Shown piece by piece: positions 33,690 through 38,646 of a stretch of 64,000 nucleotides of DNA (the first letter of the stretch is position 1; the number at the start of each line of letters is the position of its first letter). The translations under genes were made by a program, and so were the position numbers. The stretch spans positions 39,797-103,796 of the forward strand of contig JAEOSK010000005.1 of the NCBI GenBank assembly GCA_016840405.1, written 5' to 3'. The DNA comes from Candidatus Hermodarchaeum yapensis (lineage in GTDB: Archaea > Asgardarchaeota > Hermodarchaeia > Hermodarchaeales > Hermodarchaeaceae). A model generated the notes under the pieces. That model saw nothing but the letters and a program-made list of their open reading frames with translations. It ran no database searches and had not been told where the DNA came from.

Positions 33690-34005
33690 AAGGCGTTGAG
33701 CATTGACATTCTCCACGATTGAGGTCGGGAGATTTGTGGACGTCATGCAGACCTCCAAAGGACATGTCATTGCCCTGTTACCGACTTCTACCTCAGGCTC
33801 TGCCTGTTTACTCGTCGCCAAGTAGGTGGACAGAACCTTCACTGGAGCAAGCCCTATCCTAATTATGTGCCATTGTGAGGTGGTGAGGAACGGGTCCTGT
33901 GCCCGTTGATTCACGAATGCCTTACTGTCGAAGCCCACGTCCGATTGGCTACGGACCATGTTCCACCCCGAGGGGGAAGCAAAACTTCGATGGCGAAACG
34001 CATTA
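33690..34005 (-). ncRNA. Candidate structured RNA of about 310 nt upstream of proS (family unrecognised)
   Basis: Nested helices, GCGA tetraloop on minus strand, TTTTTATG box at 34023-34030. Confidence 0.55.
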
Positions 34006-34050
34006 GTATTTTCATGAGAGCTCATAAAAACACAACAATTCTTTTCCGTG

Positions 34051-34162
34051 AAAAAACTCAGAGGTTTACTTGCCGCTTCCATGGTAAAAATTGAGTGGGT
34101 GGTCTTCATTGGATGGGATGTAGGTGGGAAAGTGAACACCTGTCATCTGCTCAAACCTCTGT
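34051..34162 (-). ncRNA. Candidate small RNA of about 105 nt with 9-bp closing stem
   Basis: TTTTTATAA box at 34182-34190, CAGAGGTTT/AAACCTCTG stem, T6 terminator. Confidence 0.5.
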
Positions 34163-34217
34163 AGAATTGACTCTGTTGGAGTTATAAAAACCCTTCTCTT
34201 CACGCCGACTATTTTGG

Positions 34218-35426: not shown

Positions 35427-35519
35427 CTATCATGAAATCATTTTGATTTTCTTTAGAGATGAGAATATTATCTCATGTTGTGTAAAAAGCTTTTGCTTTA
35501 GTGAGTCTTGATCTGACGA

Positions 35520-35569
35520 TAAGGAAAAAGAAGTGGGGGCCAACCACCGTACGGCTGTTTGTGCCCCCA
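35520..35569 (-). terminator. GC hairpin plus T tract after small peptide gene B
   Basis: TGGGGGC...GCCCCCA stem at 35534-35569 followed on minus strand by CTTCTTTTTCC. Confidence 0.55.
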
Positions 35570-35614
35570 ATGAATGTTCATTTCTTATTCTAGCGTCATA
35601 ATATTGACGCGTCA

Positions 35615-35764
35615 TTAACCACCTGGTCTTCGTAACGCACCATCCCATGAGTGCTTGCGCCAAGCCTTGGGATTGTGGCATTCACGTAGTCCTGGTGATT
35701 CTTTTAGTCGTTCGCTTTCCGAAATTGGGACTTTACATTTGTTTAGTACATATCGTGACATCAT
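35615..35764 (-). CDS. Unannotated 49-aa basic peptide B (CHNPKA; ends LRRPGG)
   Basis: SD GGGGTGA; manual translation MMSRYVLNKCKVPISESERLKESPGLRECHNPKAWRKHSWDGALRRPGG. Confidence 0.6.
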   Translation of the reverse strand: MMSRYVLNKCKVPISESERLKESPGLRECHNPKAWRKHSWDGALRRPGG

Positions 35765-35900
35765 TATCACCCCTTAGTTACTCTCTCTTGTTCATTGTGT
35801 GAATTCTCTTACCTTTAAAAAAAGGGAACACTGATACTCAAGAGTTAACACTGTTAAGTTTTGCTGGTTTAAATCCCTTTCTCTTTTCCTAACCAGTCAG

Positions 35901-36048
35901 CTAACACTTCAATGATTGAGATAGATGCCAAAACCCACTCGGTGTGATTGGGACTGATGAGAGAGTCAAGATCGCGGTGAATAAAATCTTTTTCCGGGTG
36001 GTGGAAGATTTATCCGCCGAGTGGGTCTTAGCATCCAGGAAGAGTTAG
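35901..36048. ncRNA. Candidate rod-shaped structured RNA of about 150 nt
   Basis: 19-bp helix 35924-35942/36017-36035 (continuous on minus strand), outer helix 35901-35910/36039-36048, two apical hairpins. Confidence 0.5.
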
Positions 36049-36104
36049 AAACCAAGAGGTTGACCTTAGGCCAACGTGATCCTCCTATAAAATCTTTGAA
36101 TTGA

Positions 36105-36290
36105 AATAAAAAGGAAAAGTGATACGGGTCTCCCGAGCGAGGATGCTGTCCTTGAGGCCGAAAATATTTGGAGCGTTCTCCAGCATACTGAGAGTATGAG
36201 GGTTTACGCAAAGGAGATATTGGAAGGAATGAAGGTCTGGATCGGAAGACCCGTGTTTGTGACATCAGCATTTGCTGGCCTCAGCATATT
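36105..36290 (-). ncRNA. Candidate structured 3' element with multibranch fold and possible pseudoknot
   Basis: 13-bp helix 36124-36136/36242-36254, three inner hairpins, TGAGGCC/GGCCTCA crossing pair, T-rich terminator. Confidence 0.5.
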
Positions 36291-36304
36291 CATAATTACG
36301 TTTC

Positions 36305-36451
36305 TTAACGTCGGGTAAGCAGAAATGTGACGGCATAGCGTGACCGTGGAGGTGCCGTCGGGTTGCGGCATGCAGTAACGGCTCTTTCAACGGTGGGCTT
36401 GCTGTCCCACTTATTTCGAAGGCGTCCCAACAGTTTCTTTGTTGATACCAT
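36305..36451 (-). CDS. Unannotated 48-aa basic peptide A (CRNPTA)
   Basis: TATA-like TATTTATA at about 36514-36521; SD GTGGTGA; manual translation MVSTKKLLGRLRNKWDSKPTVERAVTACRNPTAPPRSRYAVTFLLTRR. Confidence 0.58.
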   Translation of the reverse strand: MVSTKKLLGRLRNKWDSKPTVERAVTACRNPTAPPRSRYAVTFLLTRR

Positions 36452-36695
36452 TATTTTTCACCACATTATGTCCCGATTATCTTACGGGCTGAGAACACTA
36501 TCTATTACACTAATATAAATATATCGGTTTAGGAGAATTTGCATACCAAATATGAGAGAATAGACTGAAACTCTGCACCCATACTCCGAAATCCACCCTG
36601 TTCCATCGTTGAGAGGCTAGTTTGCCCTCTCCCATGAGAATATAAGAAGAAACTTTTGAGGAATACTTGACTACATTTGTAGGGAAGAACCACCA

Positions 36696-37958
36696 ATGAA
36701 GCATTCAACCTGGCTCTGGGCATTCACACTCATAACTGTAATTCTATTCACTTATGCACTTCCTGTCAATGGAGCACCACCACCATCTCAGAACATTGCT
36801 TTGTCTCCCGATTATTGGCCAACCTATGGCTGGCGAGCCTCAACCCCAGAAGAACAAGGCATGAGTTCAGCCAAACTCCTTGAAATGGAACAACAAATCG
36901 CATTACTACCCTGGGGAAGCCATGTCAAATCAGTGCTAATTATTCGGAATGGTTACATCGTGCACGAGTCATATTACGACCCTGCGTACGGTGTTAATCA
37001 AATTGTGAACATTTACTCTTGCACCAAAAGCGTTAGTTCAGCCTTAATAGGAATCGCAATTGAAGAGGGCCATATTGGTGGCGTGAATGAAACGATGGTT
37101 GATTTATTTGAAAACCGAACGATAGCCAACCTTGATTCACGGAAGCAAGCTGTCATCTTGCAGTACTTACTAACGATGCAGTCGGGAATTGACTGGGATG
37201 AATGGCCCTATGGCCCCACCAGCAGTTTTACGTACATGGTGGATAGTCCCGATTGGGTCCAGTATGTGCTTGACCGTCCGATGCGCGATGATCCCGGAAC
37301 CGTTTGGGATTACAATTCAGGTGGATCCCACTTACTTTCTCAAATTCTCAATCAGACTGTCGGAAATTCGACACGGACCTTTGCTGAGGACCGCCTCTTT
37401 ACTCCCCTCGGAATTACAAATTATCAATGGGACGAAGATCCACAAGGCGTGGTATTTGGTGCAGCATGGCTTCACCTTCGACCCCGCGACATGGCAAAAT
37501 TTGGATTTCTGTATCTGAATAATGGAACTTGGGATGGAGATCAACTGATTCCCGCGACCTGGGTGAACGAATCCACTTCACTCTTTGGATATCCATATTC
37601 TGAATCAGAACCTTATGGATATGGTTATCAATGGTGGCTTAACCTGGAAATTAATGGCTATTTGGCAATTGGTTATAATGGACAGCAAATTAACGTTGTT
37701 CCTGAGCACAATCTTGTGGTCGTGTTTACTGCAAACTCTGAAGATGCAACCTTTGCTGCCATCATGAGGGACTATGTTGTTGCCAGTATTGAGTATGAGA
37801 CTCCAACACCAGTTCCGTTTCCCTTCACATTTGAACAAATCTTATTGATAGGTCAAGTTCTGATGGTCGTCGCATTTATCGCGCCCTTTATTGGACTAAT
37901 AATCCATGAAATGTGGATTCGTAAAAAGAGAAGGCAGGAGAAAACTTCGACTACTTAA
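36696..37958 (+). CDS. Membrane-anchored serine hydrolase, beta-lactamase/AmpC-like family
   Basis: Signal peptide, SCTK, YNS and RDMAKFG motifs; C-terminal TM helix. Confidence 0.92.
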   Translation: MKHSTWLWAFTLITVILFTYALPVNGAPPPSQNIALSPDYWPTYGWRASTPEEQGMSSAKLLEMEQQIALLPWGSHVKSVLIIRNGYIVHESYYDPAYGVNQIVNIYSCTKSVSSALIGIAIEEGHIGGVNETMVDLFENRTIANLDSRKQAVILQYLLTMQSGIDWDEWPYGPTSSFTYMVDSPDWVQYVLDRPMRDDPGTVWDYNSGGSHLLSQILNQTVGNSTRTFAEDRLFTPLGITNYQWDEDPQGVVFGAAWLHLRPRDMAKFGFLYLNNGTWDGDQLIPATWVNESTSLFGYPYSESEPYGYGYQWWLNLEINGYLAIGYNGQQINVVPEHNLVVVFTANSEDATFAAIMRDYVVASIEYETPTPVPFPFTFEQILLIGQVLMVVAFIAPFIGLIIHEMWIRKKRRQEKTSTT

Positions 37959-38646
37959 AGCAGGAACGGAGTTTCTCATAGAATTTGGGATTGTTAAGGA
38001 TAACAGAGAATGCAGCAAGATAGCCTAAGACTTTATCTTTGTAGTGCCAGTCAATGGAAGTGATTAGATCAACCATTTTTTCATCAGCACCTTCAAAAAG
38101 CGTTAGGAGCTGTTTGCTGTTTTCTTTCTCAAGTTGGTTCATAAATTTGGTAAAGCATGTGACATCAATTTTCCGGTCGCCATATACTTTACTGAGCATA
38201 GGTGCTATCTTCTTGGCGAGGTCTTTACCTTCATCACAGTCCCAATAATCGGTTTCAGTTGCCAGAGTCATGAAGATTTCTGCGCTTCGGGAAAAGAGTG
38301 TTTCAGTAGCGGTTTTTCCAATTACCACGCGTTGACCGGCAGGGACGACGGCTCCCGCCTTTTCTAACACTTTGAGGTAGCGATAAATGGTTTTATCCGA
38401 TTTCGCTTCTACTTCTTCAGAATCTTTAGCCTCTCTGGCGTAAGCTTTTTCCAGTTCACGAACAGTCATGGGACCTTTCCGTAATGCCCTAATGATGGGC
38501 AAATGATTTGGGTCCCGCATAATATCAATGATTTTTCGATCAGAAATTATTTTGATGCGTTCAGGTGTGTAGGTTATTACATCTTGAACATCCGTTTGAG
38601 TTTCAGTTTTGGGTTGTGCCAAGGTCATTACCTCAATTATTCTCAT
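37951..38646 (-). CDS. ArsR-like winged-helix transcriptional regulator
   Basis: DPNHLPIIRALRKGPMTVREL...TIYRYLKVLEKAG pattern. Confidence 0.82.
   Translation of the reverse strand: MRIIEVMTLAQPKTETQTDVQDVITYTPERIKIISDRKIIDIMRDPNHLPIIRALRKGPMTVRELEKAYAREAKDSEEVEAKSDKTIYRYLKVLEKAGAVVPAGQRVVIGKTATETLFSRSAEIFMTLATETDYWDCDEGKDLAKKIAPMLSKVYGDRKIDVTCFTKFMNQLEKENSKQLLTLFEGADEKMVDLITSIDWHYKDKVLGYLAAFSVILNNPKFYEKLRSCFK

Follow-up and report, generated by a model that had tools for sequence, protein, structure and literature searches.

Small basic-protein genes of an Asgard archaeal lineage and the predicted structured RNAs that follow most of them

The window analysed here, a 64-kb (64,000-nt) stretch of Candidatus Hermodarchaeum yapensis DNA, includes a gap of 1.27 kb between a beta-lactamase-family gene (PF00144; 36696-37958, plus strand) and a DUF362 gene (PF04015; 35426-34218, minus strand). 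By self-match, the gap sequence is single-copy in its own genome. The original prediction had placed two minus-strand ORFs in it, of 48 and 49 aa, each preceded by GGTGA and ATAATG and carrying CRNPTA or CHNPKA at residue 28-29. Both ORFs are present as described, at 36451-36305 (CRNPTA from residue 28) and 35764-35615 (CHNPKA from residue 29), and we refer to them as genes A and B. Gene A (36305..36451, minus strand, stop included) encodes 48 aa and has a Shine-Dalgarno (SD) sequence, GTGGTGA, at 36464-36458. Gene B (35615..35764, minus strand) has an SD sequence, GGGGTGA, at 35773-35767, and its start is probably the second ATG, at 35761, which gives 48 aa (49 aa from 35764); the NCBI start of the near-identical protein P0043 corresponds to this second ATG. 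Both genes had been called unannotated, which holds for this window but not elsewhere, as NCBI MAG records contain near-identical proteins (P0026, a homologue of A, and P0043) under the name hypothetical protein.

Homologues that keep the reading frame and motif, which the original prediction had proposed seeking in Asgard genomes, are common among the relatives of this organism. In translated searches of the 19 genomes of the order, an open B frame of 52 codons was recovered from 12 genus genomes (59-90% identity), and A-like frames from 17 genomes, often several in each. The frame of gene A itself is intact in G002 and G005, with 88-92% identity. We extracted 44 distinct small proteins with the motif, and these can be aligned over their whole length. 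In the genus, the family divides into orthologue groups A1, B, C, D and F, five in all; A1 is syntenic with A, and C and D form a tandem pair ∼490 nt apart. Codon alignments of orthologues gave median dN/dS values of 0.16 for B (nine orthologues), 0.13 for A1, 0.10 for C and 0.14 for D, and third codon positions vary about twice as often as first or second positions. A check of dN/dS had also been suggested, and these values point to purifying selection. For the A subtype of this window the ratio is 0.47, a weak test, with a dS of 0.13 and only three close sequences. The family profile matches A at E = 1e-17 and B at E = 1e-13. Collectively, these data indicate that A and B are real protein-coding genes, beyond chance. 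On contig C49 of genome G000, a protein match of low score was dismissed as noise; it lies within a larger gene on the opposite strand.

Each gene appears to be transcribed from its own promoter. Upstream of gene A, a TATA-like box (36511..36524, minus strand) lies within a block, AACCGATATATTTATAT, that is nearly invariant across eight genus loci and would serve as the promoter. Immediately 5' of the SD sequence of A, the sequence CCCGUAAGAUAAUCGGG (36472..36488, minus strand) could form a 5'-UTR hairpin; no base of the stem varies among the aligned genus loci, and there is thus no covariation. Upstream of gene B is a putative promoter region (35845..35876, minus strand) consisting of TATA-like GGATTTAAACC (35876-35866) and the palindrome TTAACAGTGTTAA (35857-35845), both of which are conserved blocks in the genus alignment. 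The 3' end of gene B (35523..35568, minus strand) carries a terminator-like GGGGG...CCCCC hairpin and T5, and a hairpin and T run are found at this position in all aligned genus loci. The DUF362 gene is in turn preceded by TATA-like GCTTTTTACA and the palindrome TGAGATAATATTCTCA (35460..35490, minus strand), a block conserved in eight genus genomes by DNA search and in the genus alignment. Because of this conserved promoter block, we infer that DUF362 is a separate transcription unit. The whole-locus alignment comprised eight genus genomes.

Profile and alignment identify A and B as distant paralogues of one family of ∼45-residue basic proteins, in agreement with the earlier view that they are diverged copies. 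The consensus has a Lys-rich N-terminus, followed by (F/L)-x-x-(I/V/M)-x-V-x-E-R-A-x-x-G-C-R-N-P-x3-P-x-x-R-x-A-x-x-(L/V)-x-S-R-R, in which E, R, N-P and the C-terminal S-R-R are common to members across groups. Conservation spans residue ∼15 to S-R-R. Gene A is a derived family member. B represents a divergent branch, in which 7 residues are inserted behind the Glu and two Cys residues are invariant. In group D, the consensus Cys is replaced by Ala.

We searched 400 genomes of the phylum with the family profile. Of the 18 other genomes that belong to family f1, 17 have the protein family, each with 2-7 copies, compared with none of the 381 remaining genomes. Two protein collections (5.8e9 and 1.8e9 sequences) yielded 45 matches, which fall into ∼20 clusters at 50% identity. 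Their lengths are 40-77 aa, each is named 'hypothetical', and their sources are without exception Asgard MAGs, labelled by submitters as Thor-, Hermod-, Odin- or Promethearchaeota. These searches indicate that the family is confined to one family-level Asgard lineage (Hermod/Thor-labelled MAGs). No Pfam match was obtained for 53 family members (E up to 10), nor did NCBIfam or PADLOC contain a match to the family. Weak profile matches to multihaem cytochromes were traced to C-x-x-C-H-N-P-H repeats and rejected, the family being devoid of CxxCH. The proteins are very basic and have no hydrophobic segment. AlphaFold2 models them with three short helices (4-16, 20-28 and 37-46; pLDDT 74), for which Foldseek against the PDB (best E 4.7) and a wide VIA-align search (best Z 4.3) returned generic helical matches only, and an ESM Atlas feature search returned no usable match. 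A complex of A and B, predicted without controls, scored 0.02, which speaks neither for nor against an interaction.

Gene A is followed on the same strand by a predicted structured RNA, RNA-A (36122..36256, minus strand). A 13-bp helix closes this 135-nt RNA, 36252-36242 pairing with 36136-36126 and the two strands reading GGGUCUUCCG(R)/(Y)CGGRAGACCC, and further inside is a helix AUGCUGG/CCAGCAU. When 12 orthologues from the genus are aligned, 94% of cells are paired and seven pairs have changed on both sides; none of 500 shuffles equalled this result. A model built from RNA-A (R2) locates it in all 14 other genus genomes. Downstream lies a T-rich tract (36100..36121, minus strand), with runs of T4 to T8 here in the aligned genus loci, which is probably an archaeal oligo-T terminator, possibly a leaky one. 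The original prediction had described a stem and T tract behind both genes; both are there, but the two are of different kinds, an RNA with a 13-bp helix behind A and a plain hairpin with T5 behind B. Genus alignments contain no conserved TATA block between an ORF and its RNA, and each ORF has a conserved one upstream. Given the absence of a TATA block between them, the simplest reading is that ORF and RNA are on one transcript, and we consider them to be presumably co-transcribed.

Related arrangements recur elsewhere. A folded RNA with oligo-T lies 3' of A/A1 in 12 genomes and 3' of C and D in nine, the A, C and D RNAs being 120-140 nt long and closed by a covarying helix, CGGGYCUUC/GAAGRCCCG or variants thereof. 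RNA-D is 85% identical across the genus, with long invariant interior stretches such as GGACCGGGAAGUGCC. Behind the group F gene, which we fetched to test the module idea, there is likewise a folded region, containing CCGUUGU and ending in a T run. In a second genus, the small gene precedes a folded region of ∼130 nt that contains GUAGGUCCA, again with oligo-T. Among distant MAGs, L076 has a closing helix, CGGGUCUU/AAGGCCCG, after its family copy, and L075 and L077 have 3' regions that end in T runs, as judged from primary sequence only. These data argue that a module of small gene, structured RNA and T tract recurs at A/A1, C, D and F, in the second genus and in a distant MAG. The proposal of a peptide-plus-RNA module is thus borne out at these loci but not for gene B, which is the exception, with a simple terminator hairpin and T tract and no module RNA.

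The RNAs share short interior words. The word (A)UCCGUUG is common to the A, C, D and E-type RNAs, and GUAGGYCC or GGUCCA to the A, D and E-type RNAs; CCGUUGU is kept across paralogue RNAs that otherwise differ. The inner motif (A)UCCGUUGUC is enriched in genomes that carry the module, and ATCCGTTGTC occurs 6-10 times per genome, compared with 0-3 times for a control word. The E-type RNA (RNA-E) is a highly conserved relative of RNA-A, ∼155 nt long, which model R2 found in 11 of the 14 other genus genomes. In nine of these 11, it begins a few bases past the end of a gene for a membrane-anchored PF00144 hydrolase, counted from the stop codon. This hydrolase locus has no mini-protein gene in cis, from which it follows that the RNA needs no cis-encoded partner.

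Known RNA classes do not account for these elements. Rfam families (C/D box, H/ACA, SRP, RNase P, riboswitches and ribozymes) gave no covariance-model match at the locus: cmscan of the 30-40 kb part of the window (E up to 1) returned no matches, and no tRNA was found there. When five related loci were scanned at E up to 10, a match to sR16 appeared (L039, 2350-2412, minus strand), which is chance at 20 bits versus a gathering score of 70 bits. Hammerhead, C/D box, BHB and SECIS elements were rejected by eye against the RNA alignments, and a GAUGAUG before RNA-A has no box D partner. A conserved ATGATG at the same place does not begin a gene, since a 4-nt indel breaks the frame in G001 and GGGTCTTCCGG is without synonymous variation. 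Selenoprotein mRNAs with SECIS elements (PMC11227280) are likewise a poor comparison: the family genes have no conserved in-frame TGA and mostly end in TAA or TAG. Integron attC cassettes have RYYYAAC/GTTRRRY cores and promoterless ORFs and sit in a variable array beside intI; here, the closing helix is CGGGYCUUC/GAAGRCCCG, and the genes have their own conserved promoter blocks and lie at syntenic loci. A search for pseudoknot partners of CCUCUUGG gave weak and inconsistent partners only.

Sequence comparison places this window in a subgroup (G000, G002 and G005) that is derived within the genus. In the other aligned genus members, A1 is followed by a mini-ORF, A2, of 26-28 codons, which is missing from these three genomes; in the alignment, a gap of ∼115 nt separates the body of A from its 3' end, which lines up with the end of A2. 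The word CCGUUGU has been lost from RNA-A of the subgroup. The C-terminus of B reads RRPGG in the subgroup and LLFQRR in other orthologues. As PGG occurs only in these three genomes, a 'diglycine tail' is not a conserved feature of the protein.

Between A and B is a second predicted structured RNA, H2 (35920..36039, minus strand), shaped like a rod. It has a closing helix of ∼20 bp (36036-36017 with 35942-35923) and a conserved loop that reads UUUACCACCGCGA in relatives and UUAUUCACCGCGA here. Across nine genus sequences, 90% of cells are paired and there are seven covarying pairs, equalled by 2-3 of 500 shuffles. Its G-U pairs are compatible with the minus strand only.

No organisms are known to be more closely related to eukaryotes than the Asgard archaea, yet knowledge of the small proteins and non-coding RNAs of this group is close to nil. 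For the family described here, we propose that the mini-proteins are RNA-binding proteins and that their cognate element is the 3' RNA following their own genes, a reading to which we assign a probability of roughly 40%. A and B, which encode basic proteins of ∼48 residues with three predicted helices, would be independently promoted. Gene A would be transcribed together with its long folded 3' region, RNA-A, which would end in oligo-U, and H2 is a further folded RNA upstream of gene B. The genes, their selection and paralogy, the RNA folds and the linkage of gene and RNA are findings of this analysis; co-transcription, RNA binding and any regulation belong to the proposal. RNAs of the RNA-A family follow most of the mini-protein paralogues as well as one beta-lactamase-family hydrolase gene. 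By binding the 3' RNA on their own mRNAs, the mini-proteins could mediate autoregulation or the maturation of 3'-UTR-derived small RNAs, and they might also bind the same kind of RNA on the hydrolase mRNA. Several observations count against this RNA-binding view, namely that RNA-E lacks a mini-gene in cis, that B lacks a module RNA, that RNA-A of the subgroup lacks CCGUUGU, and that the dN/dS of A, from three sequences, is 0.47. In addition, Pfam and fold searches revealed no sequence or fold similarity between the family and any known RNA-binding domain.

The nearest documented counterpart in function would be CcaF1 of Rhodobacter sphaeroides, a 71-aa DUF1127 protein that binds and matures sRNAs cut from its own 3' UTR (CcsR1-4), affecting RNA maturation and stability (PMC8034643). 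The two share a layout in which structured RNA lies 3' of, and on the same strand as, the gene of a small basic protein, as seen here for A/A1, C, D and F. The two systems are not homologous, however: neither A and B (E up to 1) nor 53 family members (E up to 10) match PF06568. The family's hosts are archaea, without an RNase E pathway of that kind. Furthermore, each gene here has one large multi-helix RNA as opposed to four hairpin sRNAs, and there are several paralogous gene-RNA pairs per genome, for which binding is putative.

A more specific version of the RNA-binding proposal is that these three-helix proteins of ∼45 residues recognise a cognate RNA of ∼130 nt with CCGUUGU, forming a lineage-specific RNP and a post-transcriptional regulon. 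Such a regulon would cover the 3' ends of the mini-protein mRNAs and of the membrane-anchored serine-hydrolase mRNA. We regard this version as rather doubtful. If true, it would have no counterpart outside this Asgard lineage.

An alternative to RNA binding is that the folded 3' regions are mere terminator or stability elements and that the mini-proteins act elsewhere, with no specific tie to RNA; they might, for instance, be regulators that bind DNA, belong to chromatin or associate with the ribosome. Each element does end in a stable helix and oligo-T, the same kind of RNA is found at the end of the hydrolase gene, and B and DUF362 also precede hairpin or stem elements with T runs. A role in DNA binding would be consistent with the conserved promoter palindromes, and genes for double HTH_AsnC regulators recurrently adjoin C/D-type copies. 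However, termination in archaea requires oligo-T alone. Moreover, the identity of RNA-D across the genus, its invariant interior and the retention of CCGUUGU across paralogues are more than a stability hairpin requires. On balance, we deem this alternative somewhat unlikely, but it is the chief rival of the RNA-binding reading.

It is also conceivable that the RNAs are trans-acting base-pairing regulators derived from 3' UTRs, with the loci being dual-function and the peptides functionally independent. The H2 loop, UUUACCACC, would then mask ribosome-binding sites, and AUCCGUUGUCC would be the seed of RNA-A, -D and -E. Indeed, UUUACCACC and the SD region of gene A1, GGUGGUAAA, are complementary, and in G000 both loop and SD are shortened in parallel (GGUGAA with UUCACC). 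The conserved unpaired motifs, and 3' ends with a helix and oligo-U like those of bacterial sRNAs, fit as well. If H2 targeted A or B, its duplexes with their start regions might be expected to be more stable within genomes than between them, but the mean energies were -17.7 and -16.9 kcal/mol for own- and cross-genome duplexes, a difference that is not significant and gives no sign of specific co-variation. An anti-SD-like tract pairs with any SD, and no target was found for AUCCGUUGUCC. Bacterial dual-function sRNAs such as SgrS/SgrT, RNAIII/hld and SR1/SR1P (reviewed in PMC12310071) resemble these loci in combining a peptide ORF of <50 codons with a structured RNA that has a 3' stem-loop and U-tail. 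Their seeds and targets are known, whereas no target was found here, and the protein family described here is multi-copy and strongly conserved. We consider regulation by base pairing unlikely.

The original prediction had raised the possibilities of an RNA-controlled toxin and of a leader or arrest peptide. Small size, an adjoining structured RNA, the N-P motif and the PGG end of B in this subgroup would suit toxins, parts of a toxin-antitoxin or defence system, or arrest peptides. Against a type I toxin or defence role, the proteins are basic, have no hydrophobic span and match nothing in PADLOC, and their genes occupy syntenic single-copy positions under purifying selection across the genus. 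Against leader or arrest peptides, every gene has its own promoter and terminator, a hairpin and T tract follow each ORF, and the next gene has a TATA block of its own; the putative arrest motif is not near the end of the ORF, with ∼18 conserved residues after N-P, and PGG is confined to G000, G002 and G005. These functions are very improbable. Least probable of all is the suggestion that A and B are RiPP precursors processed by the neighbouring DUF362 Fe-S protein. In its favour, B lies directly upstream of DUF362 in eight of nine genus loci examined and B-type proteins have two invariant Cys residues. Against it, a DUF362 gene adjoins only B, and in G011 an A1-like gene, within one genus; none is found beside C, D or F, nor beside the copies in the second genus and in distant MAGs. 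Furthermore, DUF362 lies behind the terminator of B with a promoter of its own, the Cys is Ala in group D, and, in place of the conserved leader and variable core of RiPP precursors, purifying selection (dN/dS 0.10-0.16) acts over the full length with no hypervariable core.

In the literature and catalogues that we searched, the protein family, the RNA family and their pairing are not described. Pfam, NCBIfam and Rfam lack a protein family and an RNA family that are genetically coupled and of which each genome has 2-7 copies. Should the proteins indeed bind the RNAs, this would constitute an archaeal counterpart of the arrangement of a small protein plus a 3'-UTR sRNA known from a few bacteria, and would provide a compact protein-RNA recognition pair open to in vitro study without culturing. 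More generally, gaps that look 'empty' in these MAGs owing to ORF-length cut-offs contain conserved genes.

Two further elements of the original prediction concern sequences around the genes. The flanks of A and B had been said to share the words ATTATGA and CACAAACA. Both words occur at the places given, and in the 64-kb window CACAAACA is found solely at these two flank sites, but their conservation does not support the idea. In G002, the nearest relative (87% identical DNA), the words in the B flank read ATAATGA and CATAAACA, and ATTATGA in the A flank reads AATCATGA; in other genus members, the B flank has neither ATTATGA nor CACAAACA. Since the words are mutated or absent in relatives, they are under no constraint and best read as chance. 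The gap had also been joined with 33.7-34.2 kb into a single small-RNA and micropeptide island, and this region is heterogeneous. One part, the ∼120-nt unit that comes after DUF362 (34203-34084), has been kept by 13 of 14 genus genomes. Another ∼380 nt (roughly 34083-33703) are absent from G002 and have related copies at four other sites in this genome, which identifies this stretch as a dispersed repeat inserted here.

Behind a hydrolase gene in members of the genus lies an RNA, here called RNA-E, that is related to RNA-A, the folded 3' RNA of gene A and its orthologue group A1. RNA-E (L105:1501-1659, L106:1501-1639 and nine further loci, all within L098-L108) is ∼155 nt long and closed by the helix ACGGCUCCC/GGGAGCCGU. 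Nine of the 11 genus genomes have its start within ∼10–30 nt of the stop codon of the hydrolase gene, a PF00144 (beta-lactamase family) member with a membrane-anchored product. Because the 5' arm, GGACAUCCGA, has two alternative partners, the 3' arm and the inner AUCCGUUGUCC, it is possible that RNA-E acts as a switch.

The fifth orthologue group, F (loci L121-L128), encodes a product reading ...LFKKKGKKVHFDRISVGERAALGCRNPHPTPGYQRAYKVMTSRRGSKW, and its start codon seems to be other than ATG. In most genomes, the 3' RNA of this group takes a shorter, two-hairpin form, with GAUGAUUAC as its first bases. In the remaining aligned members of the genus, A1 is followed by a third mini-ORF, A2 (26–28 codons; L004:1767-1850 and the corresponding position in L005, L006, L007, L018 and L019). 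A2 is preceded by a GGTGAT Shine-Dalgarno sequence of its own, the C-terminus of its product is ...(F/Y)xYxLxLxRR, and a 3-nt indel leaves the frame intact. In this alignment, which does not include G005 (the third member of the window's subgroup), A2 is missing from the window's own genome and from its nearest relative, G002.

Directly 3' of the DUF362 gene is a ∼120-nt unit (34084-34203, minus strand) with a TATA-like box, a 9-bp closing stem and T6. Of 14 genus genomes, 13 have a conserved copy (73–92% identity) at the syntenic place; no Rfam match was found for it. The ∼380 nt upstream of proS (33703-34083, minus strand) are missing from G002, where the flanks are contiguous, and related copies (69–81% identity) occur on contigs C67, C14 (two copies) and C27 of the window's genome. 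Other genus genomes also carry related copies, at non-syntenic places. The absence from G002 and the related copies elsewhere mark the 310-nt multi-domain RNA noted here as a dispersed repeat (a multi-copy RNA gene or a mobile element of small size) and not as a gene present once.

A GAGA(W)nTCTC-type word is common to the promoters of the DUF362 gene, gene A and the divergent beta-lactamase-family gene (TGAGATAATATTCTCA, 35460-35475; TAGATAGTGTTCTCA, 36491-36505; TGAGAATAT, about 36625-36650), which suggests that one regulator may serve all three units. An ArsR-type HTH gene (37951-38646) adjoins these units. Among the tandem C-D loci of relatives, the palindrome TTTTGCAC-N6-GTGCAAAA lies upstream of the D promoter (e.g. 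L038, L043, L045), and GCTCCCATCGAWTAATAT is common to the C and D promoters. Some C-D loci adjoin a ∼330-aa ORF, and distant copies (L075, L077, L078) adjoin a gene for a ∼325-aa protein with two HTH_AsnC/HTH_24 domains.
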